Below are positions 426-62,200 of a stretch of DNA of 64,000 nt, in pieces. Every line of letters begins with the position of its first letter. Within the stretch, counting starts at the first letter, position 1. The stretch covers positions 6,760,001 through 6,824,000 of the forward strand of contig NC_087245.1 of the NCBI RefSeq assembly GCF_037042905.1. Direction: 5' to 3'. The notes under the pieces were generated by a model, which was not told where the DNA came from, did no database searches, and saw only the letters and a list, made by a program, of their open reading frames with translations. The stretch is from Lytechinus pictus (Eukaryota). Both the position numbers and the translations under genes were made by a program.

Positions 426-2069
426 TATATTTCATTTGCACTTTTATCTTGTTGTATACTTATTGAAAATGTCAATTGTGCAAATTTTATCATTTAATAT
501 ATTTCTATTGTGCTACTGTAATTTCGCTTGCATTTGTTACTATAAAAATCCAAATGAAACATAATTATATCTTGCCGATGGCTACAGTTTTCTTTTTCAT
601 TGCATAGTAGCAGTACAGGGCTCTCTCGAAAAGCAGTTTTTATGTACTGAAGAGACCACCCTGTCTCAAGAATACAGAAATAAATGATAAATAAATAGTA
701 CATTATAATATGGTTCATTTTATATGGATGCCTTATTAGGCCCACGAATTGTAAAAAAAGGGGTGTATTGACTTTTCACCCGGAGTTTTCTTTAAAAAGG
801 TTTTTTTTTCTCTCTCTCTCTCTCTCTGGACTCCTGAGAAAGTTAAAAATCTTTCCTTAGGTATAGAGGGTTCCCACAAATAATAAAAACCTGTGCATCA
901 GACTATGAAAAGTCATTGTTTTCGTGGTTTTGCTATTGTTTTGTCCTCCACCATGACACCAGGGAACCTCTATTGTAATGACAGGCTACATGAGATGAGG
1001 GGGGGGGGGGGGAGGCTGTCTGTCCTGAGATAGGGGGGGGGGTACATTTAGCAGTGTTCCGGATTTAGGGGGGTCTCCAAGGCAGGAAAAGCCCGCGAAA
1101 GGGGGTTCAGAAATTTTGGCAGACATGGGGGGGGGGAATTATTCACGTAATTTTACAACAAATGAATGGCCTACTTTATGAAATGAAATGTTTGTAACAA
1201 TGCAATAATTCATATAGTATTCAAATAATTTTCAGCTCGTATTTCTTGTTGTGTATAACATAACATGACTGTGTACATATGCATACAGTTCTTTGTTCTA
1301 ATAAACTTGTAGAAACTGTGTTATATTACATTTCATATGGTATTTTATTTATGTTTTCAATAATTTTGTCACTCTCTTTTCTCAGTCTCTTCTCTATTTT
1401 TCTTCAATTCGGTCATATATTCATGTTTTTTAGTTCAATATCAATTTTGCTTGTACATTAAACATATCTGATATTTTCATGGCGAATTTTACGAGAACAT
1501 AGTCATTGACTAGAGATAGATATATCCGTTGCACTCGGATGACTTCCAATCCGATTATTGTAACTCATTCGAATAAAAACGAGCTGGTCCCTTTAATTAC
1601 GCCCCTCTCAGGGTGAAACGAGAGACCAGGCCGTTTCGTGAGATTTGAATCTTTAAAGAGTGGTTTTTAGCTCTTTTTAGTGAAAGTGTCTAAAAAAGAA
1701 AAAAAAATCGCAGTTCACTCCATATGGAGTTATAATGCAAAGTTTACTTCCAAAGTAGGCCTATTGTCCATATTCCTAGCATGCCTAGAGGAGTGTCATT
1801 ATGGACATCTATAGCTGTTTTGTATTTAGATCGTATAAAGTGTATTTTGTAGTAGCATGTTCAAATATTCAAGATTGAAAACTTACTTCTCATAGCGAAT
1901 GTAAACTTAGTCAGAAAATTCCTTGATGTGACACAGCGAAATTATGTTAGTGAATTGATATCAATTATTCCATAAATAATAGATGCAAATTCAATTATAT
2001 CGATTGAATTTTAAACTAGTTTATCATAACAGGTATATCCCAGCTACTACAAACATCAATATTTATTAC

Positions 2070-2100
2070 CTATTTTGTCCGGCCGCCGCCATTGAAAAGG
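2070..2100 (-). other. Candidate first exon of a divergent - strand gene (ATG at 2092, MAAAGQN..)
   Basis: Minus strand reads CCTTTTC-A-ATGGCGGCGGCCGGACAAAATAG|GTAATA: a TCT/TOP-like pyrimidine start, an ATGGCGG (YY1-type) start motif and a donor. Downstream exons are not established. Confidence 0.4.
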
Positions 2101-2162
2101 ACCTTCATAAGCTTTCGGTCCTCTATTTGCTTGCTTAGAAAAAGAGGTAATGCTCTCTTAGT

Positions 2163-2314
2163 CAGGGGCCGCGGAACGGTTTTCAAAGTGGGGGGGGGGG
2201 GGGGAGCTGACCATGCAAAAATCACAATCATATGGTAATTTTTACGTTTTTGTACACGGTTTTGGAAAAAAAGTGACTGGGGGGGGGGGGGTTGCCCCGC
2301 TTCCGCAGTCCCTG
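2163..2314 (+). mobile_element. MITE, same family, TSD TTAGT
   Basis: TIRs plus TTAGT at 2158-2162 and 2315-2319. Confidence 0.8.
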
Positions 2315-3559
2315 TTAGTAATCAGGTAAGATAAAAAGAACCAACCACCACCATCACTCTTACAGAATGATAAAATCCTGTGACTTTTTTTTTCATGCCT
2401 GAAGATGACGACAATCGATTTACAGAAAGGCCTTTAAAACAACAATTTTTATACTAATATAATGTGATAAACTTCGCAATTGATCATCTGAAAATATTGA
2501 AAAACAGAAATCAATGAGATAAACGATTAACTTTCATGCAAATCATACTTGTGTAGTTAGCATGGTCGGAGTAATCTCAAAGTCAAATATGAGCGACAAA
2601 ACGGCATGCAGTTGAAGTGATCCTGGGCTCCTGCGTGATCTTTCTTTCATAGCGTGCTTGAACAATTTGTATAGGTATTCAGTGATCATGTGCTAAAACC
2701 TAAGCGCAAATACGAGAAGGATTAAAGTCGATGTAATGTACTTTAAGATACACAAATGAATATAAATGGTCAATAAGAGTGGATCAGAGGCAAATCATGT
2801 TTTGATTGAGATTACTTGAAATGTTTACCAAAAAATGCAGGCTTTCCAGGGTGTTTTAATAATCCAGAATTCTCTTATTGCATTCAGCTCGAAGGCTTTT
2901 CTTGAATTTGACGGGAATAAAAAAAAAGATATATACTCATTAGTTAGAATAAGGATACGAAATATGTGAATGATAAATGATCATGCCCAGGGGCAGATCC
3001 AGGATTTTCAAACAGGGGAAGGGACATTTTCCCGAGGACAATTTTGACAAGCAAAAAAAAAAAAAAAAAAAGATTTTCAACCAAAAAATAAGGACACGGG
3101 TTCCGCTAGTGATTATGCCCTATAAAAGTGGAGCAAATGCACGATCAATTCAATGTAGATACATATATTTCGACATGGTATTTGTGGCATGATTCCATAT
3201 CATGATTTCCTTGGATGCAATTCTGTTTGTTTCCCTCTAAGGAATTTTTTTTTTAATTTCAGGTCAATTTGGAAGGTAAAATCTAAAGAGGCACCCGTTG
3301 CCGTCTCCGAAGAAAGCAATGCCATTAGTCGAGTAACGATAACAGAGATGTAAATATGGCAATCCGTTCAGCAAATGCTTTGATACAACCTCAAACATCT
3401 CTCAGAAAAAGGGAAACCATACGAGAACGCAAACAGGACTAACAAACAGTATCCATACAGAACAATGAAATACCTTCCCGTTGGGGGTCTTCATTGATGA
3501 ATCTACAAAAAACAGCGTTTAGGTCCAAAATTGTCTCTTGGATAAAGTAGGCTCATATA

Positions 3560-4509
3560 CAGTGCGTATCAAAAAAAGTTTACGCTTTGTGTTAATAATC
3601 ATGTAAAATTATATGTTTGTAATATCCTGAAGCTTTTTCCACATTTAAACATTAATACAGATCTCTTTAAGCAAATGACGATATAACTGTCGAAAAATCA
3701 ATCTTTACGCTTAAGAGAACACCACTTACTTTTGTAAAAAATCCGTGATAAATGATTTGCGCAGAACTTGAAAATAATTATAAGAATACAAGTAGAAATT
3801 AATCATGAAGAACACATGGACTTTAGCTAGGAACATTGATTTGAAGATTTATTTTACCTTTTTAACTTGTTTCCTTGCCCAAAACACTTCATAGATAGCC
3901 ATTGCATCCCTCCCCCCCCCCCCCCTCTTATCGTGATGATATCTGCTTTAGACGGAGCTGTGAATAACATGAAATGGCTTAGGTTTGATTTTCATTTTGT
4001 TAATCACTCTCACACTTGGGAAAAGTGTGGAGAAACGAAATAAAACATGAAATGTGTTCCCACTTTAAATGATAAAAAAGAAACTTAGTGAAAGAATGCT
4101 GGAGATGTCTAAAATAATATTTTGTTTACATAAAGTTATGTCCTCAGATCCAGCTGGCAAAAGGGTAAATGTTGTGATTACTTAGGCTTTAAATGTAAGT
4201 TTGGGTGACAAAGTTGTTATAAAATATTCGGATGTATCTGCTTTATTTAAATTTGCAAAAAATGCAAAAAGAAATGTACCGCACAGTCAGTTTTTACGTC
4301 GTTTTTTTCCTTGACTCAGCGTGAAAATGAGTATTCCTTAGCAAAAATGGACAGTGCTCATTCAAGAGTAACATTTTGTCAATTTTTTTACTTTAATTGA
4401 TAGATGAGAACCAAACCCAAATATACAGTAAGTGTGAAAAAATATCCCCATGTTGTATATTTTTCAATTCCCACGACATTTTCAAATAATAAACTTTTTG
4501 TACGCACTG
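3560..4509. mobile_element. Tc1/mariner-type non-autonomous element
   Basis: TA|CAGTGCGTATCAAAAAAAGTTTA ... TAAACTTTTTGTACGCACTG|TA. Confidence 0.8.
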
Positions 4510-4511
4510 TA

Positions 4512-5029
4512 CAGTGCGTCCCACTAAAACGGAAACCCGTTTCAGAGACAGATTTCACAATTATTAAATATGTTTTTACTACAAATTTAATATTTATGGT
4601 AAGAGTGGAATCTTCTTTTTAATATGAAACCAACATCTTAGCAAATCGTTCGCACATGGCATATTAAAAACAATACATATTGAGACATGTCAGAAATAAT
4701 TTGGGCAGAACCTGCACGTGTGAATCTGAATCCATTCTCATTTCAGGGATCAGTGAGAGAAAGAAATGCTAATGAGCCAATCGTCTAATAAGCACGATGG
4801 TCGTACCACGAATCAACCTTGTTCAACTTTTCTGCGCAGCCTGATGCTGACATTAAAATTTCAACTTTATCTTGCTCATTAAAGCGTATTTGTTCGTCTC
4901 ATATTAGGTATCAAAGTACAGAGAAATAATTGAATTGTATGATGATGCTAATGAACTATCATCATTCATTTTCGTTTGAAGAAAAAAAAAGATATAGGAA
5001 ACCCGGTTACTTTCTTCTAGGGCGCACTG
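4512..5029. mobile_element. Second Tc1/mariner-type non-autonomous element abutting the first
   Basis: TA|CAGTGCGTCCC ... TAGGGCGCACTG|TA; shares the TA at 4510-4511. Confidence 0.7.
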
Positions 5030-5662
5030 TATATATCTAGAAAAGAGAAGAAAACAATCTATCAAACATTCCCCTTGTAGATCTGTCCTGCCTTATGATA
5101 TTATCAGTTAAGAAAATGAAGTTCTTGATTTCGCTTTTCAGATAAATTATTTAAATTGAAAAAAGTTCAGACAAGCTTTCCTTTCTCTTGTTGATTTACC
5201 TACAAAAAGAGAAGATAATCAGGACAAGGAAGAAACACAGCTCATGATACTTTAAGAATCAAGTTTTGACAAACTAATATCCAATTCCCATCTTCTATTT
5301 CTGTCTTCAACAATGACATCCAGTAGACCAAGCACAAGCAGTTCTACACCCCCCCCCGGGCCCCCCCCCCTCCTTTCTTTCTCATGGCCATCTTTCTATT
5401 CACTCGTCTCTGTTCTCCCTGATATACAAATAACATCCACAGTCTCCGGAATACTCGTAACTATGTCTTCAGGTGCATTTCGTTTCAGGGATCATATAAT
5501 AGAAGAGTTCTTGGATGTGTGCTTGAAGACGTCAGCTTTTGGTAACCGAAATTTCTTTGGAAATGGTCTGGATTGGAAGATGAGCTAAGTTTATTAGATC
5601 GGAGTTGCTGATAATAACGATCTTGGATTATCATCCGATATATTCATGTAGACCAGTCAGAG

Positions 5663-8600
5663 ATGTCAAGGTAATTTGATTTCTTTATTGGATTTATTTT
5701 TGTTTTACCCTTTTTCCGATTTAATTAGATTTGATTAGACCTATATGGTCAAACTGTTAGTAAATCATTTTGTCAAATGTGGTTAATTTACACGCATGCA
5801 TGTGTTGACAGTAAGACTTATAAGTGAATAAGTATTGCAAATTAAACACGAACAATTTGTTAAAACCTCTTTTTCATCAGACTTTATTTTGAAATAAAAT
5901 TGCTTCTTAATTAATTTGACAGATTAATGCCTTTTTGGGACCATGGGACCAATGTGTGTTGTTCTGGACAATATCCAGATGGAATCATCCCATAACAATA
6001 TGGGCCCTATATGTTTTTTTTCTGTGCAATATCTGAATAGAAATCATCCCAGTACAACACATGTGGACCCCACTTGGGCCCACATGTTGGGCCCACAAAT
6101 TGGGCCCCACTTGGGCCCACAAATTCAACTCGGATAATTATCAATGAAGTGTTGGGTACAAAAACCCACATACCACATCATGATAACATTACTCTTAATA
6201 GATTTAAATTACTTCATCCCAACCTTAATGCAAATTAATTCACCCCGAATTAGCAAGCAATATCAATAGCCTCAACGCACATTTCGCAGATTATCTCTCA
6301 GATCCAAATCAAGAATCTTTCTTTAAACCCCAACAAATCCATCCGAAGTCATTAACATTGCCCGTTCCCTTCGCAATTCTAAATCGTCCGGTGTTGACGA
6401 ATCATTATGTTTCTACTTAAACAAATAATTCACCTTCTTACTAGCCCTCTGACTTACATATCTAATAATTCTTTATCTCAGGGCATTTTCCCAGATTTAT
6501 TTAAAATAGCAAAAGTCAATAAAAAAAAAAATGATCCTCACGAATCAGTAATTATCGTCCAATCTCCTTACTTCCAACCATATCTAAAATTCTAGAGATA
6601 ATAGTTTATACAAGACTTTATAAATTTATCAACATTCTTAACTACAATCAATATGGCTTCAGAAAAAAAAGTACTCAACAGATTTAGCATTACTTCAAAT
6701 TTATGACAAAATTACAAATGCCAACAAAAGACACATAATTGATATTTTCTGTGACCTTAGTAAAGCATTTGACACCATTAACCACGATATTTTACTTTCG
6801 AAACTCAATTATTATGGGATACGGGGCCAATTTCTTCCATGGTTTAAAGATTACTTACATAATCGAAGACAATATGTAACTTTTAACAACAATTATTTTG
6901 ATTCTCTTTTAATTCGCTGCGGTATTCCTGAAGGTTGCATTTTAGGCCAACTTTTATTTTTATTATATATTAATGATATTATCAAAACCTCCTCAGTTTT
7001 GTCCTTTGTCTTATTTGCCGACGACACAAACATATTTTATTCTAACAAAGACGTTAATTCATTAAACAATATAGTTAATCGTGAAATCAACAAAGTATCA
7101 AAGTGGTTCAAAGCCAATAAACTATATATCCCTAAATAAAAAAGACACACTTTATGTATTTTTTAGATGGCACACCATCAAACAGAAAAAAACCCTCAAA
7201 ATTTGTAAGTGTAATCATAGATGGATTTTGACCTGGAATCAACACATCATTCTATAATGTGCGTTTCAAAAAGTATTGGCATAATTTTCAAGCTAAAAGT
7301 TTGTCTTCCCCATAAAACATTATTCGTATTGTACAATCTTTTAGTCCTCCCTTATCATGCTTATATAACATACTGTAATGTCGTTTAGTCTAATTGTGGT
7401 TCTTCGAAACTAAATTCTATCTTCAATGATCTACAAAAGAGAGCCATCAGTATGTGTACAAGGTCACACTGACCCCCTGTTTCATAAACTGAAAACATTA
7501 AAAGAAAATTGATATAAACACTATTCAAGTAGCAATCTCTATTTGTGAAGAAATCTTTGGCATTACTCCTATGTGTTTAAGATCGCATGCTCGATCAGTA
7601 ATGAAAATCATAAGTCAGAAAAAATTGGAACCAGTGGGATTCGAACCTGTCATCTACTGCTTGCCGGGCAGCGACTCAACCACACATAGGAGTAATGCCG
7701 AAAATTTGTTCACAAATGCCGAATGCCGAAAATTTGTTCACAAATTATTGTTACCTTCTATTGAAGCCCCTTTATTTACTATCTATTGTCCACGGCGGAC
7801 GGCATTTGCATATTAATGAGTCAGAAAGAAGAGGATAGAGGGTATTTGTATTCCAGTAGTTCATCGTGACTTAGCCGTGAACCAGAATAGCCTGGTGGTT
7901 CAGTCGTTGCCCGGTAAGCGGTAGATGACAGGTTCGAATCCCACTGGTTCCAATTTTTTCTGACAGATCGAGCATGCGATCTTAAACACATAGGAGTAAT
8001 GCCGAAAATGTGTTCACAAATTATTATTACCTCCTATTGAAGCCTCTTTATTTACTAGCAATCTTTATGTTTTAAAGTATATCAACAATTACTCCCTCCG
8101 TTCTTTGGTAACATGTTTAGGTTGAGCAGGTCTGTCCACTCCTACCCAACTCGCATATCTGGAAACATCCATCTCACTAACCACAAGTCAACCCCAACCC
8201 ATAAATCCATTCGACATTATGGTCCCAAAATTTGGAACAATTTTCCAAACAATATCAAATCATGCTCAACTAATTACTCCTTGAAAGCTAATCTTATAAG
8301 AAACACCATTCAATCTTATGCACTTTTAAGTTGAACATCAACTGCTCCCTACTATATTGCACATACACCTGCACCTGCATTTGCACCCACTCTTGATCAA
8401 TGAAGAAATACGTGTACCTTTTTATGAGGCCGCCATCATTATCAAGCCTATAATCGCTCACGATGGTGGTCTCCTGCATTCTCTTAAATCGTCTTTCTGT
8501 TTATTGAATAATACATTTGTTAAATTAGTATTGCTTATACTTCAGCAATATTATTATTTTGTTATATACTACATTGGTACATATTACTTTGTATACTTAT

Positions 8601-10998
8601 ATTTGATGCATTGAATGTTGAAACAAAAGCAATAAATCAATCAATCAAGCAATCAAGCAATCAATCAATCAATCAAATTACCTTTTATTTTTCATCCTAA
8701 TTTTCTCGTTTTGTTATAGCAATTTTGTGTTCCCTTTCATTATTGATAAGTGCTTCCCTTTCTCCCTATTTTCTTCTATTGCAAAAACGATTTCGATAAA
8801 CTTTTTAAAGACTCGTTCACCATAAAGATCATTATACTAGGTTATATCGCATCAAGGTCCACCAAGAAACAGAGTTCGTAAAAAAAAAGACAGTAGTATT
8901 CTTCCGAATAATACTTTAAATTCTTATTCGAAAATAAAATACAAATAGCATTAGAGATATCTATCAAAATTGCCTTTCAGTGATATACATAACGTCACCT
9001 TTTTCTGTCAAAATAAAAGATTCAGTTTCATTTTGAGATGTCTTATTTTGATAGTCTTTTATGTCAAACTATCGCTAACTTTTCGATTTCTTTAAGAAGT
9101 GAAGAAGCGGTGCTGGATGATCAAATATACTTTATAAAAGATTGTCGTGAAATTTTATGTCGTCTTTTTGCTCGCTTGGTGTATAGGGAGTTTACTGAGG
9201 ACTATGGGAGGTCCTCAAATCCTGGACAGTCTCCTCGCCGTGAGGCATGGAGCCCCACCCCGGATCATATCAAAAACCTCGACGACCATCTCGTACCACG
9301 ACACTCACCCAGAAGATCATTTCATAACGGACGCGTCTCTCCCATCAATGACCAGGGGGATCTAGAGGCGGGATTACGTGGTGGCACACGGGCAGGAGGT
9401 GGAACAGGCCAGACATGTACGTACGTAGCATTGGCTGTGATGACGACCTTGCTCGCCGCAGGAGCAGCGGTCGGTGTCGTCTATGGGTTAACAGGTTAGT
9501 ATATATATATTCACCTCCGATTTCTACTTCTCTCTTCAAACTTACGAGAAATTGCCGTTTGCCTTTAGCAAATGTGTACGTAATTAAAGCAATTTATGTA
9601 GAGATTGTGAGGAAGGAGTGGGGCGACAGCTAGTAAACACCATTTATAAATATGCAGGGGCGGTCCTACTGGAGGCAGGGGGCGACCACATCATTTTCAA
9701 GAAATGAAGAAAAGGAGGGAAAAAAGAAGTATATGTCAAGCAGGGGCCGCGGAACGGTTTTAAAAGTGGGGGGGGGGGGCTGACCATGCAAAAAAACATA
9801 ATCAGATGGTATTTTTTACGTTTTTGTACATGTTTTGGAAAAAAAGTGCGGGGGCTGAAACTTCGAAGTTTCAGCCCCCCCCCCCCCCCCCCCCGCTTCC
9901 GCGGCCCCTGTCAAGAAGCGAGCAGCGAGTACAGATACGGGGTCATAGAGAGATCATGCGATTTCTGCGGAGTTAGGGTAACGAAATTCATCTGTTTCCT
10001 GTTTTGTGTGAATATAATTCGGCCCAAAATCATGGATGAACTTGAATCCATACGACTGTCGCGCCACATAGAGAGATTATGTGAGTAGAGGTATGCAAGA
10101 AGTTTACATTCACCCTACGATTAAAGTAGGCCAAATGGTAAACGGAGCACAGGTATCGTTTTGCTTTCTTTGAAGGTGAATGCCAACTCTCAAGTATATG
10201 TTCACGTTTATGATATTGAACTTAATTCGCATTATTCTTTTAACAGGTTTCAATTTCGGCAGCTCATCGCCGGTGAGATCGACTGCTTTAACCCTAACAA
10301 TTTCATCGTCTCCAGCCACCATATCAGCCTCTGCTCTAACAACAAATGAAGCATCTACTACACAATCAGACAGCACTTCAACTGCATCTACAACAATCCA
10401 GACTACAACACTTGCTTCTACCACGAATGCGGGATCAACCACACAAACTACAAGCTCTACTTCTTCCTCTACAAATCAAGCCTTCACGTCGACCTCTGCA
10501 CCCACAACAAATGCAGCGGCCACGACACAAGCGGACAGCGCTCCAACGACCTCTACAACTATGCAGACGACGATTGTTTCTACCACTAATGCGTTATCAA
10601 CCGCACAACCTACAAGCTCTGCAACTTCCTCTACAAATCAAGCCATCATGTCGACCTCTGCGCTTACAACATTTACTTCTACAACTAATGCGGCAACAAC
10701 CACTCAACTCTCAAGCTCCATAACGCCTTCTACAAATCAGGCTACAACATCGGGTCTCACAACGACCCATGTATCAACAACTACGTCATCTGAACTTGTC
10801 GGTACCACACTTGAAGAGGCTACAGCCGAGGAAGAGGAGGTTACGGTTGCCATGACAACTTTAGATTCTTCTGAGATGAGTACGATTGAAGGTGCCACAC
10901 AGACTGGATCCACTGCGGATCAAGAAGTGACCAGTATTGAGATGACTACAGAAGAATTGACAGCAACACCCATGGACGCAACTACAGCGGACTCCTAA
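5663..10998 (+). CDS. Type II single-pass membrane mucin-like (Ser/Thr-rich) protein, ~355 aa; coding exons 5663-5670, 9187-9494, 10247-10998
   Basis: ATGTCAAG|gtaatt (5663-5670) splices to gtatag|GGAGTTT (9187) in phase 2. ACAG|gttagt (9494) splices to ttttaacag|GTTTC (10247) in phase 1. Total 1068 nt open: MSREFTEDYGRSS...TCTYVALAVMTTLLAAGAAVGVVYGLTGFNFGSSSP...MDATTADS*. There is an in-frame stop upstream of the ATG, one hydrophobic helix (~aa 83-104) and ~250 aa of S/T-rich sequence. Confidence 0.8.
7539..8055. mobile_element. tRNA-derived short retroelement with inverted plus partial-tandem structure, nested in the LINE
   Basis: 9-bp TSD TAGCAATCT (7530-7538, 8056-8064); removing the insert restores LINE peptide DINTIQVAIFMF. 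Inverted arm 7541-7683, direct partial copy 7684-7744, full unit 7745-8020, 35-bp tail 8021-8055. Confidence 0.85.
7879..7952 (+). pseudogene. tRNA-like head (A box TAGCCTGGTGG, B box GGTTCGAATCC, CCA, T-run); not a functional tRNA
   Basis: The T-stem is mispaired. The anticodon reads GGT here but GGC in the inverted copy (7626-7683). Confidence 0.75.
9741..9910 (+). mobile_element. MITE, same family, TSD TCAAG
   Basis: Perfect TIR CAGGGGCCGCGGAA...TTCCGCGGCCCCTG plus TCAAG at 9736-9740 and 9911-9915. Confidence 0.85.
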
Positions 10999-22700: not shown

Positions 22701-25140
22701 TTATCCTAAACATATTCCGGATAGTGCATGCAACTGCACCATTGTGGTGAGATACAGTATGACTTTGTGTGTTCTCTCTGATTCTTTAATGTGCTGTGGA
22801 TGAGTTGGGAGGTACAATAGGTTGATCCAGATCTGCCCAGTCCACATTTTGTCTCTCTACGCACCTGGAAACATTGTGGTTTCCATTCTCACTGTCCGGC
22901 TGTAGTGCAGCAATGCCCAGATACACCGTGCAATAGTCTGTTCTGCAGAAGGACTGAAGCTTCCACGGAATCCTTTTCCATTGTCCTGTGGAGAAATCTG
23001 AATCTGCTGGCAAGTATTCCGAAGCAAAGACATTCTCAACTACTCTCCTCCCATAGGAGATTCGATAATTCAAGATTCTTTCCTCTCTGGACAATACTCT
23101 TCTGCTGTATGGCTTCCTGATATATAGTACGAATGCTTTATCCCAACATGCCCAGAGATTAAAGAAAGCAATGTTGTGATGATCATCGGTACTTCCAATA
23201 GGCAGGGTGGAGCTATTCCTACTAGGTTTCCTCTTCGAAACCTGCATGTGAACAGCTCAGAGTCGCCAAATATCTGAGCATCTGACATAAGTCCTTTCCA
23301 CTAAGCTCAATCCATATGAACTTACAATCCATGTCCACCATAGCCAGAAGAAAAATCTGGAATAAGTCCTTATGCAGGATGCAGGTGTGGGATTGGTTCT
23401 TGATTGCGATTCATGGCTCCGACAACGTAAGGGATTTATCACTTCTGCTTAAACTAGTAGACTTTCGCTGTCCAGACTTTACGCAACCAAAATACATTTA
23501 CGCTTGCACAATAATTGCCTGTTATATTCCAGAATGATCTTTGAGATGCTGGACATTACATACCTAAAAGCCTACGCAAGGGACTAATAGACATGATGTT
23601 TTCAGTGGCCAGGTTCTCAGAGTAACTGGCAATTTGAGACCCAAAGGATTGTCTAAAATGTTCCTTCTTGGTTAATCATGTTAATGGGGCTGGAGGACTG
23701 GCCAAAATGTTGTCTTTGTGTCATGCACAACCCCAAAACTATCTGACTGCAGATTTCCTGACTTTCTGTGGTTGGTGATGGGGTTTGCCTTGCTGTTCCT
23801 AGTATTCTTCTCCACTGGAGACAATGTAAGCATACCGTCATCTTTCTATACTGCCATAATTGTAGTAGGTCATAGTCTTCATTATTTACTCTATGGAAAG
23901 TCAAGAAAAAATGAAACCTATGGCCACTTGGATTTCATTAATATCCGTCAATCTCCAGTTGTAGGGCAATATTATTGGTGATAACTTTCGATCCCAGTCC
24001 GCATCGGTTCGTAATGGTCGTATCCGAACGTACATACACGTACCAGATAGTCATAAATAAAATATCTGATCCTGATGTTCGTATGAGATCTTTACCTAAC
24101 CGCGTACTCAACCGGGACAATCCCATCGGAAAGTATTCGATCATATCTGAACGGGATACCAGATCGTGGTACCTGAAAATGACCAATCGTGACCCTATCC
24201 CATCCAAGCGCATTAAATCATATCCATTAGTAATACCTCGTATCTCAACGTGAAATTTCAGAAAAGTTGACAAAAAAATCTGCGATCAGCTACGAAAGGA
24301 CAATCGCGGCGTTCGTAGCGCGAATCGTGACAGTGGGAGCTCTAATTAAGGACGCAATATACAGATCAGTTAAAAGCCAGGATGTTACTTACTCTCGTCC
24401 GTAGTTCACCGTTACACCAGCGAAGTCTACGTTTGCGCAGCTGATTAGGAAGACGAATTGGAAGGCAAAACTACAGAGAAGAACACCTAAAGTGAAACGC
24501 ATCATGCCTCGATACTTGAGATTAAAATGCTTGACGACCCAGCCACCAAACAAAGCACCTATAAAACTTGATGGTGTGACGATGATGCCTGGAGAATTAA
24601 TGAAACAAAAATAAGACTTCATGAGATTATATCGCAAATTCACCATTCATTAATTGTTAATTTCAAACCAACATAAAAAGCGCTGATTACGTAATGTTGG
24701 TTGAAGTGTGTAGTCATGTCAGTTGTTATATATCAGGAGAGAAAATTAAGGTTATTACATTGGCGCTAAAAACCATTAGACAACGATTAATCACAGTTTT
24801 AGGAAGATGACAACTGTTCTCGGAACTGTCACAGGTAATCGACAATTTAAATGACTTGTGTTTAAAGAACTAACATGATGTCACAATGCTGATGAACTTA
24901 TTTTGCGAGACTTTGTGATATCTTGCAAGCAATATGCTGCTTGCATTAGTTTCCACCACCACCACCACCACCACCATCATCATCACCATCATCATCATTA
25001 CCATCATCATCACCATCATCACCATCATCATCACCATCATCATCATCATAATCACCATCATCATCACCATCATCATCATCATCATAATCATCATCACCAT
25101 CATCATCACCATCATCATCACCATCATCATCACCATCATC

Positions 25141-59200: not shown

Positions 59201-62200
59201 TCTGTAGCATTTATTTGTATTCATGAAGCCGTAGAAGAGACTGAATAGTACATGATAAGTATTCAAGATTTAAAGAGTATGAAATCAGAGATATGCTTAC
59301 CTCTACACTCTCCTCTGTATCTTCTACTGTATTCATACAGCCAGCATGACAAGCAGAATAGTACATGATATTATCTTCTCCGCATACAGGTTGGAAGTCA
59401 TTACCACAGTGACAGTCAGCGTTACAACCTGCAGTAAGATTAGCTTCTTTACCACTGTATTTCATCGTCCTATAAGAAAACAAAAGACTTAATGAATATA
59501 CATGTTGACTTACCATCATTGTCCTAGCCTAGAAGTCTGCAGGAACTATTGGTTTTCACAAGTGCACAATGCAGGGTCTAAAATACGAGACTAGATTTAC
59601 AGGAGCTGATTCTAGACACATCCCATTTAGATTCTAGTCTTCATACTAGGCATGTTATTAATTGTTAAAGTGTCATATTTGAGTCTGTGCTAGCAGAATA
59701 CCAGTACAGCACTTATATGATATACAAAGACCTTAATCAGATTACATGTACATATAAATTTGTTTTACTTGATGGTAAAGACAGAAAACTTTAATGAACA
59801 TGATGGTAATAGTCTGTATCAGTCATATACATGTAAGAGTGCTATTCAACCAATAAGAAGTTTTTACCCATTCCCATAATTCACAGTGACTCCAGCGAAG
59901 GAAGCATTGGGGCAGCTGATCATGAACGTGAAAGTGAGCAGAAATGATGCACAGAGAGCAACCAGTACAAACTTCATCATCCCACGGAACTTAAGATCAA
60001 ACCGTTTCACGATGTAACCTCCAACCAACGCACCCAGCACACTGGACGGAGTAACAAGCAAGCCTGGAAAAGATGAGACCAAAATAACATAAAGAATTAA
60101 GAATTATGATACAATTTCTGACATATACTCACCACGGTTTCATTCCTTGTGCACCAATTATTCATTTTTATTTGGTTGTGGTATGCCAGCGAATCAAAAT
60201 TTCATCAAAGTAATGAAATGATTTATGTATTAGTCAGAATACCATCGCAGTCTCCCACATTTCAGTCCTCATAAGTTGTGCGACACTTTGGTTGTATTGC
60301 ATTTACTTCAAACTTTGATATTAAAGTGAACCTAAAATACATGTGCTATCACTGTCTAATCACTGAAATTAGGTTTTAATCAAGATGGTTCAAGCATTTT
60401 ACGAGTTGGAGTTTCATGTGAAGGGATAACAGCCAAGGGATTACAGATCGAGCATGCGATCTTAAACACATAGGAGTAATGCCGAAAATTTGTTCACAAA
60501 AAAGGATAACAGCCTGTCTTGTAATGATGATCAGATTAACTACAGCTTTTGGAAGGCTGCTTCACAATTTGAGATGGTTTACCCTACACAAAAATATGAA
60601 CAGTAAGGTAAATTTTGTTAATCAGCTGATAATCCCCCCAAAAAGAGTTTATCATATTTATGTAATTGTTTATCTAGCTACATATTTTGTTTAATTTGCA
60701 TATCAGTATGAGACAATAATAAGACTGCATATGCGATGTAGAATTCTGAGTTCTTGAATTCTTTTAAAGAATGGCAGAGTTAAAATATGAATTCAGCAGT
60801 CTAGCAAAGTCTTTGATCTTTGTTGCAATTGTTAGAAAGTGCATGAATGTCAGTCCATACCTGCTGTTATAGCTGCAGAGCCAGATGTCATATTGAACTG
60901 TGATTCTAGATACTTTGGTCCAAAGACAGCAATGGAGGCAAGAGTAAATGTCTCTGTGACAGTGACCATACTGACACACATGAATGCAGGATTCCTGATA
61001 AGCATCCAGGTGGCTCTGGGGAAGTCAATCAGGCTCTCGCTTAAGCCTGCTCGCACCTCAAACTCATGGCCGTTGTGCGCCTCATTTCGACGAAGCTCTT
61101 TGACCTTCTTTGCTCCTGAAAACAAACCATCACAGTATGAAGTTATTGAGGAAAGCTGTGAAAAAGCATATTCACAACATGTTATGCTTAATTTCAAGTC
61201 TCTCTGCTTGTATTCATAAACCTTTATTTTCATTTGATATTTTTTTGCATTTATATCACAATGAGTTGTTTGTTTTGTATCTGACAGATTTGTGGAAAAT
61301 AAAATGAAAACAATATACAATGACAAGACAATTAATTATGGAAATATGCATATTTCTTACAAACCTCTACGGGTAGACCTTCATTTTTACACGAGAATGA
61401 ATCTGATCCTATATTATCAAAACTATATGTGAGCAGTAATTCTATTATTGTGAAATAAAAAAAAAAGATAGTTGTTTCAGATGTCCCTCTCTTAGATTAC
61501 AAGGCCTACATCATCTTATCTATGATGCTCACAGAAAGGAAAATTTTTTACAGAATTGAAAAACAAACAGGGTTATTTACCTGGTAATGAGCGTGTAAAT
61601 CCACACAATGGAATAGCTACTGTAAGAGCTAATACACCAGTAACTAGGAATCCCATCCACCAGGCACCTACCCATACTGGACTCTTAGGTGTGATGTCAA
61701 GTCTATACAGAAGATAAATTAAAACATAATTGTTTTCAATAATAATAATAGTCAATTTTTAGCACAAAGCACATAACTACGTCTCTATGTGCTTCTGCCT
61801 CTAGGCAAGACAAGACAAAGAAAGAAATGCAAATATCCCCCTTTTATTTTCTATAGTTTGTAGTAAAATCTTGAATGTTTTCCATCATTTTATTATCCCA
61901 AGAACTTTTATTCTAATTTCCGTCTGGACGATATATTGCATGGTTTCTATTCCCCGTCAGCTCCAAGCAAAATGAGGAAACTGCATAAAAAGAGCATATT
62001 CTACTCTCATTTGTGAATATCCTTTTGTAATGGTGGTGGCAGACTAGTGGTAGAAACAACGTCATACAGACAAAGACTACAATCAATATTCTCGAAATAA
62101 CAAGAATAAAGAAAACATTGAAGATTATTATCCATGGTGATGGGATCCATGGCTTCATAAATTTGTTTTTTTTTCACACAGACATGATGGAGGGAGGAAG

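Follow-up and report, generated by a model that had tools for sequence, protein, structure and literature searches.

A typical Penelope insertion, as described for Pen2a_Av by Arkhipova et al. 2013 (PMC3846280), consists of two direct pseudo-long terminal repeats (pLTRs) and an adjacent inverted pLTR, accompanied by a 9-bp target site duplication (TSD) and a 31-bp tail. In this study we analysed a 64,000-nt stretch of Lytechinus pictus DNA (contig NC_087245.1, positions 6,760,001 to 6,824,000 of the forward strand; hereafter the window, which is animal DNA of ~35% G+C). It contains a 517-bp insert built from a 276-bp repeat unit with a tRNA-like module. The layout of this insert is that of Pen2a_Av and was therefore counted in favour of an origin connected with Penelope-like elements (PLEs). 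We consider it probable that the gene-less element was mobilised in trans by a PLE and copied from a multimeric RNA; the participation of a PLE enzyme is what we infer from the insertion footprint alone.

According to the same account, pLTRs can move unrelated sequence in trans (PMC3846280). The PLE tail is 30-40 bp long, is often found at one end only, and is not seen with target-primed reverse transcription (TPRT) of the long interspersed element (LINE) type (Craig et al. 2021, PMC8557442); non-autonomous Chlamys families and Naiads devoid of a hammerhead ribozyme are described in that report. In canonical animal PLEs the pLTRs do carry a hammerhead (PMC4209133). Frangieh et al. 2024 (PMC11167929) reported that a PLE enzyme acts on both strands, cutting as well as extending them, that the tail corresponds to the stretch between two internal reverse transcriptase (RT) start sites, and that ribozyme cleavage is not needed in vitro.

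With endonuclease-bearing (EN+) PLEs and their non-autonomous derivatives, in the parts of the reports that describe their insertions (Pen2a_Av, PMC3846280; Chlamys MRC1, PMC8557442; PAc, PMC11167929), the insert shares the partial tandem of pLTRs, an adjacent inverted truncated copy, a one-end tail of 30-40 bp, a TSD of the 8-10-bp class, two end sites and AT-rich targets. It differs from them in having no open reading frame (ORF), no hammerhead core, and an internal pseudo-tRNA with a terminator. Every structural PLE feature that we examined was present (pLTRs in partial tandem, a truncated inverted copy placed head to head, a tail of 30-40 bp confined to one end, two end sites separated by a tail length, and a short TSD of variable length); a hammerhead in the pLTR, a usual but non-universal PLE trait, was absent.

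Animal non-LTR retrozymes (PMC7229834; bioRxiv 10.64898/2026.07.22.740005) resemble the insert in their non-coding unit of ~300 nt, permuted or tandem arrangement and probable PLE dependence, and the 276-bp unit in partial tandem lies within the 170-400 nt of retrozyme tandem units. The insert lacks their defining type I hammerhead and has a tRNA module. Retrozymes have been proposed to be non-autonomous PLEs, in a report whose main text does not mention tRNA (bioRxiv 10.64898/2026.07.22.740005). SMalpha and Sjalpha of Schistosoma (PMC6765202; PMC8490949) are also tandem units (335 bp) resembling short interspersed elements (SINEs), with an internal RNA polymerase III (Pol III) promoter, a feature that our unit may share; it has been proposed that their upstream unit transcribes the next one. 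SMalpha has an active hammerhead, whereas the insert has none and carries a T6 run after its tRNA module; the passages on SMalpha draw no tie to a PLE tail or inversion. Helenus, Ajax and Cassandra (TRIMp3; PMC10886601) are similar in being non-autonomous, with a small-RNA-derived Pol III module placed off the 5' end and a non-functional tRNA that retains A and B boxes. They are LTR elements with a primer binding site (PBS), a polypurine tract (PPT), a 4-5-bp TSD and the module inside the LTR, whereas the insert belongs to a family with TSDs of 9-11 bp and has a tail, an inversion and the module outside its 96-bp direct repeat. Neither a 4-5-bp TSD nor a module within two LTRs, as in Helenus, was found. 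The TRIMp3 paper, in its text on these elements, makes no mention of Penelope (PMC10886601).

Layout and insertion site of the 517-bp insert

The features of the insert, its target and a second copy of the family are as follows (positions of the window).

6642-8260, forward strand: insertion target, a decayed LINE-type RT frame (RVT_1 E 1.8e-18 for 6642-7136; extent past 7136 by eye)
7530-7538, forward strand: left copy of the TSD, TAGCAATCT; the empty target has a single copy, with C as first base
7539-7540, no strand: two bases between the left TSD and the inverted arm, with no match in the main unit in the alignment
7541-7683, reverse strand: inverted, 5'-truncated, tail-less arm of 143 bp, running from the tail-less end site back via the T-run into the pseudo-tRNA; retains a 16-nt segment missing in the main unit
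7682-7716, forward strand: last 35 bases of the preceding unit (part of the pLTR), 34/35 identical to 7986-8020; first 2 nt common to the inverted arm
7715-7742, forward strand: 28-nt stutter, by sequence comparison a 7-nt partial copy plus an exact 21-nt copy of 7694-7714
7745-8020, forward strand: one full 276-bp unit (repeat spacing 276), its start counted at the tail-less end site
7804-7811, forward strand: octamer ATTTGCAT, polymorphic in the family and probably incidental
7878-7952, forward strand: pseudo-tRNA with a 7-bp acceptor-like stem (7879-7885/7944-7950), A box (7888-7898), 5-bp stem with 7-nt loop, and B box (7931-7941)
7954-7959, forward strand: T6 run resembling a Pol III terminator, crossed by 238 RNA reads of run X21 (see below)
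7960-8020, forward strand: post-terminator region with small hairpins, finishing at the tail-less end site (...TTCACAAA), where reads and the second copy also end
8021-8055, forward strand: 35-bp tail, in which, by its match to the unit start, the unit begins anew; stops at the family's second end site
8056-8064, forward strand: right copy of the TSD, a repeat of the left 9-mer
60424-60514, forward strand: second family copy, a 69-bp insert (60435-60503) between 11-bp duplications (60424-60434 / 60504-60514), 5'-truncated and tail-less, with 3 extra A at its end

The insert represents one insertion event with one target duplication. The 517 bp are enclosed by the 9-mer TAGCAATCT (7530-7538 and 8056-8064); a 9-mer shared by two random boundaries, with 0-3 nt of slack at each, occurs by chance at a rate of 0.00016 (at most 200,000 trials). 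The initial annotation of this DNA had proposed an insert of this size with a 9-bp TSD, and its coordinates hold, far above chance. A contig joining 7500 to 8073, i.e. an empty target, was recovered in both of two DNA sequencing runs (X1 and X4, one contig per run), and in that of X4, for which the intervening bases are listed, the 9-mer is present once. Over 323 aligned bases the empty-target contig shows 37 differences from the window. It may be paralogous, or orthologous and from a relative, and in either case displays the pre-insertion state of the target. Because it may be a paralogue, age was not derived from flank divergence. In flank translations inspected by eye, the LINE-type ORF2 frame of the target appears to run on across the TSD. 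The right flank (8098-8270) is itself repetitive, with a contig depth of ~1,400-7,300 over 8130-8270 compared with 38-80 for single contigs.

Within the insert, the inverted arm (7541-7683) is identical to 7895-8021 at 118 of 127 aligned bases, apart from a 16-nt gap, and 34 of the 37 positions of the unit start (7745-7781) recur in 8021-8057, at a spacing of 276. The inverted 3' portion, the 276-bp unit (7745-8020) and its 35-bp restart (8021-8055) recognised in the initial annotation are thus confirmed. The direct 3' fragment placed there at 7684-7744 also exists, but its real make-up is 35 template bases (7682-7716) followed by the 28-nt stutter, in which an identical 21-mer (7694-7714 and 7722-7742) flanks the 7-nt partial copy; the stutter would reflect a slip on the template during copying. 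At the head-to-head joint the inverted arm and the direct fragment overlap by 2 nt of microhomology (7682-7683). The tail occurs at the right end only, and both the inverted arm and the solo second copy are devoid of it. Sequence beyond the T-run does belong to the unit, as had been claimed, although the main unit is short by 16 nt 3' of the T-run, which the inverted arm and the sequencing reads retain. Folding of five stretches gave no significant z-score (best -1.79).

The repeat family and its RNA

The family was examined in the window itself and in four of 24 listed public sequencing runs, mapped to the insert (DNA runs X1 and X4; X21 and X24), which come from coded organisms A and C, either of which may differ from the window species. 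The statements below on end sites, joints and variants concern the listed part of the mapping results, namely 24 of 762 loose ends, 15 of 108 joints and 40 of 142 variants.

The ratio of unit interior depth to empty-target contig depth was ~2,500-3,000 in X1 and 5,700-6,300 in X4, which is an order of magnitude and not a copy number, and suggests a family of thousands of copies. In DNA and RNA runs alike, coverage 5' of the tRNA is of similar magnitude to that of the tRNA part, and this 5' sequence therefore belongs to the unit. The initial claim that upstream sequence (133 bp in the unit) is mobilised together with the tRNA is borne out by this deep coverage.

Two end sites, one tail length apart, recur across copies (8057 versus 7541/7716). 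At the tail end site, 18 contigs of X1 and 17 of X4 leave the element at 8057; the flanks beyond are AT-rich and unlike each other (agreement 0.45 and 0.48), and the listed ends show no poly(A) consensus at 8057. At the tail-less end site, 76 reads (7541) and 45 reads (7716) of X24 leave the element. The listed inversion joints fall at several different positions. Some minority variants are common to both copies within the insert (7928 with 7650; 7763 with 8039), and the 9 differences among the 127 aligned bases of the arms divide between them as private changes, roughly 3-4% each, a pattern consistent with a single template lineage and subsequent ageing. In organism C a length variant of the unit was noted: in 261 reads of X21 at 7587-7614, ~34 nt within the post-terminator region are tandemly duplicated.

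The second copy in the window, absent from the initial annotation, shares its end site with the inverted arm, and with TSDs of 9 and 11 bp the two window copies indicate a variable short duplication. At its 5' junction (60421-60441) 7 target bases, lying left of and into the TSD, are repeated before the element, which suggests a short re-copy of target DNA. Pattern scans revealed no further copies in viral contigs, and none in metagenome contigs (two patterns). The matches in prokaryote genomes (3 and 2) were rejected as family members, all five being chance matches of 18-22 bp without extension.

X21 is a stranded RNA run depleted of ribosomal RNA (rRNA), of which ~6% of reads were used (~25% for X24). 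Over 7778-7905 its first mates favour the minus strand by 4.4:1, which by the usual library convention means tRNA-sense RNA. RNA reads extend beyond the tRNA module: in X21, 238 cross the T-run and 149 the unit junction. As this junction also exists in DNA, such reads cannot separate circles from tandem DNA. No peaks of read starts or ends were found along the insert; short Pol III products would be missed by rRNA-depleted libraries of this type.

As for the rest of the window, exons of apparently several tandem OATP transporter genes occupy ~19700-61400 on the reverse strand (Pfam OATP in both of the exons tested), and the second copy (60435-60503) seems to be intronic and antisense to a gene of this type. 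A separate ~110-bp repeat with a long G run occurs in three copies that are 87-94% alike (309-410, 2162-2275 and 9741-9848). The mucin-like frame at 10180-10998 (forward strand) is rich in Thr and Ser and contains a tandem duplication of 162 bp. The frame at 22786-23256 (reverse strand) had no Pfam match at E 0.001; by eye we take it to resemble a Harbinger-type nuclease fragment.

The tRNA-like module and the ribozyme question

The A box (7888-7898) has one mismatch and the B box (7931-7941) is perfect; a pattern of A box, B box and T-run occurs once in the window and in none of 200 shuffled windows. The module is a pseudogene and not a functional tRNA gene, as judged from its sequence: its T stem is broken and its anticodon loop varies (main unit GGT, inverted arm GGC, most reads GGA), and the isotype is therefore uncertain. 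ARAGORN made no call at default settings and reported Thr(GGT) only at -ps80; against the Rfam tRNA clan the module scored 16.7 bits (E 0.33, gathering threshold 47). Rfam searches over 6500-9000 gave no match at E up to 1, and those on three short stretches up to E 10 gave sub-threshold hits only, among which the tRNA-clan and vault rows, both following the A and B boxes, were taken as meaningful. Of the initially described tRNA-like module ending in CCA before a T-run, the A and B boxes and the T6 are present, whereas the CCA (7950-7952) is incidental: its first C falls inside the acceptor-like stem, and the triplet is therefore no evidence for a mature tRNA end.

The octamer reported at 7804 is present as well, but a functional role is unsupported. 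It occurs 13 times in the 64-kb window (~0.1 expected per 517 bp) and is mostly broken in reads. Position 7809, a C in the window, is A in 82% and 95% of the depth of the two DNA runs, and in X21 the octamer is broken in 611 of 650 sense reads and intact in 76 of 86 antisense reads. It is polymorphic, dispensable and probably incidental. A promoter of the small nuclear RNA (snRNA) type, an idea prompted by newt satellite 2, was considered for the octamer combined with a stretch (~7862-7878) resembling a proximal sequence element (PSE). We discarded this idea because most reads lack the octamer and because the PSE-like stretch adjoins the tRNA start, whereas a PSE is expected 50-60 bp upstream of the start.

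No CUGANGA hammerhead core was found on either strand of the insert (the best match, CUUAUGA, lies 4 nt off a helix), nor any Rfam ribozyme family up to E 10 in the three short stretches, in agreement with the initial view that this is not a standard retrozyme. A combination of GAAA, 7-bp stem and UUA at 7728-7747, at the unit junction, resembles the right half of a hammerhead, and in the inverted arm a 7-bp helix lies 2 nt before the GAAA-equivalent. The half motif appeared in 4.2% of 3,000 shuffles and both features in 0.3%, with a descriptor that was post hoc and halves that come from different copies; we take it as no more than a hint of a relic. Twister- and HDV-like folds were set aside after inspection by eye revealed no matching helices (no descriptor was run).

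Probable Penelope-like mobilisation and the alternatives

If the insert was copied from RNA, the layout requires a template of tRNA-sense polarity that measured ~350 nt or more and passed through the T6 and across the unit junction. Such a template implies a multimeric read-through (or circular) RNA and not a monomer starting at this tRNA. The PLE enzyme (telomerase-like RT with a GIY-YIG endonuclease) would nick the two strands of the target with a 9-bp offset. One of the ends would prime at the distal start site (the tail end, 8055) and copy the tail, the full unit and 35 nt of the previous unit, then slip (giving the 28-nt stutter) and stop; the other would use the proximal start site, which lies 35 nt upstream (the tail-less end), and copy the 143 nt of the inverted arm. 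The two products would then be joined head to head through the 2-nt microhomology, and priming at the proximal site alone may yield tail-less solo fragments such as that at 60435. Of the initial proposal of a non-autonomous Pol III-module element with Penelope architecture, the layout, the non-autonomy and the multimeric template have stood; Pol III use, a circular RNA and the Penelope enzyme itself remain putative.

Several observations weigh against mobilisation by a PLE, or narrow the ground for it. No autonomous partner of the 276-bp family was identified, no genome-wide search for one having been made, and its link to PLEs is through the footprint only. The hammerhead of canonical animal PLE pLTRs is absent, although Naiads also lack it. 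The T6 directly after the tRNA module opposes Pol III as the maker of the template and is the chief obstacle to a promoter role. On the RNA side, X24 has no strand bias (0.84), the strand call in X21 depends on the library convention, and the X21 sense pool is near-uniform (A at 7809 in 611/650 reads versus 10/86 antisense) and may derive from few loci; the lack of start and end peaks also counts here. Only two insertions could be read with both flanks, one of which, the solo copy (60435-60503), ends in 3 extra A, and the listed shares of loose ends, joints and variants (24/762, 15/108 and 40/142) leave the proportions of monomers, tandems and A-tailed copies uncounted. Finally, the empty-target contig, with its 37/323 differences within an old LINE, may represent a paralogue or a related species.

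The best surviving alternative, which we nevertheless regard as unlikely, is a tRNA-derived SINE or SINE-derived satellite moved by an ordinary LINE (of the CR1, L2, RTE or L1 type) from a multimeric transcript. The A and B boxes in the tRNA-like region, the variable duplications of 9-11 bp, the 5' truncation, the extra A residues of the solo copy and the LINE relics in the window are all compatible with it, and SINE-derived satellites are known (PMC10702118). Compared with SINE2 elements, however, the unit does not begin with the tRNA head, since 133 bp precede the tRNA and move along with it, and there is no single 3' end with a poly(A) or short-repeat tail (the exception seen being the 3 A of the solo copy), the tail end having no poly(A). 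The inversion would have to be attributed to twin priming. In LINE twin priming, the outer end of the inverted piece adjoins the point where the direct piece stopped; here that outer end is instead the tail-less end site of the family, as in the solo copy and the 76 + 45 reads.

Very doubtful is a retrozyme with a decayed or non-standard hammerhead, which would also be PLE-mobilised and form circles by self-cleavage. The unit size falls inside the 170-400 nt range of animal retrozymes (PMC7229834), and the hammerhead-right-half-like motif (7728-7747) with the 7-bp helix of the inverted arm could be read as its remains, yet CUGANGA is absent, the halves belong to different copies and were matched by a post hoc descriptor, no Rfam ribozyme appeared up to E 10, and reads show no end peaks.

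A Mutator-type miniature inverted-repeat transposable element (MITE, a DNA transposon derivative), built from a tRNA-bearing repeat, is highly improbable. Mutator elements have long inverted repeats and 9-bp TSDs, and the 143-bp inverted repeat with its 9-bp duplication recalls these; the repeat is, however, not terminal on the right (35-bp tail), the listed inversion joints fall at several positions, and the second copy has an 11-bp TSD and no inverted repeat. Equally improbable and largely refuted is the nesting of two or three independent SINE insertions at one spot: the arms do differ at 9/127 bases plus the 16-nt gap, but there is a single outer TSD and no inner one, the empty target lacks the whole insert at once, and the arms have common minority variants and private differences (~3-4% each) as expected from ageing. 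Such nesting, or a family of A-tailed monomers headed by the tRNA, had been set against the proposal in the initial annotation itself; what we found is a pre-tRNA part as deep as the tRNA and, among the listed loose ends, ends at two sites without poly(A).

Returning to mobilisation by a PLE, the pseudo-tRNA could have either of two roles in it. The chances are about even that it is a captured passenger, with templates supplied by Pol II read-through. It is possible, though somewhat short of even, that it acts as an internal Pol III promoter transcribing the next tandem unit by leaky termination, in the manner suggested for Schistosoma SMalpha (PMC6765202; PMC8490949). More tentatively, and on present evidence rather unlikely, there might exist a class of “Penelope-dependent SINEs”, i.e. 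non-autonomous PLEs in which a captured tRNA gene serves as an internal Pol III promoter for the following unit, with leaky termination, in place of the pLTR promoter and hammerhead. The sub-case that host tRNA-processing nucleases cut the tRNA-like fold and so substitute for the ribozyme is very unlikely. We found no published description of a tRNA-bearing, ribozyme-less PLE derivative, in a search that had supplements, Repbase, Dfam and most subscription journals outside its scope.

Few non-autonomous PLEs have been catalogued from animals, and retrozymes, the best known among them, are recognised by their ribozyme. Families without a ribozyme would therefore escape notice or be classed as SINEs, satellites or tRNA genes. 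Present in thousands of copies and sharply bounded at two end sites, the 276-bp unit offers a compact natural substrate for studying the cis requirements of the PLE enzyme, which have been named as an open question (PMC11167929; PMC8557442). If the tRNA module is a passenger, the family would be an ordinary PLE derivative that inflates pseudo-tRNA counts. If it does function as a promoter, all three retroelement classes would have undergone Pol III capture, and “Penelope-dependent SINEs”, if real, would be the PLE counterpart of LINE-dependent SINEs and LTR-dependent TRIMp3.

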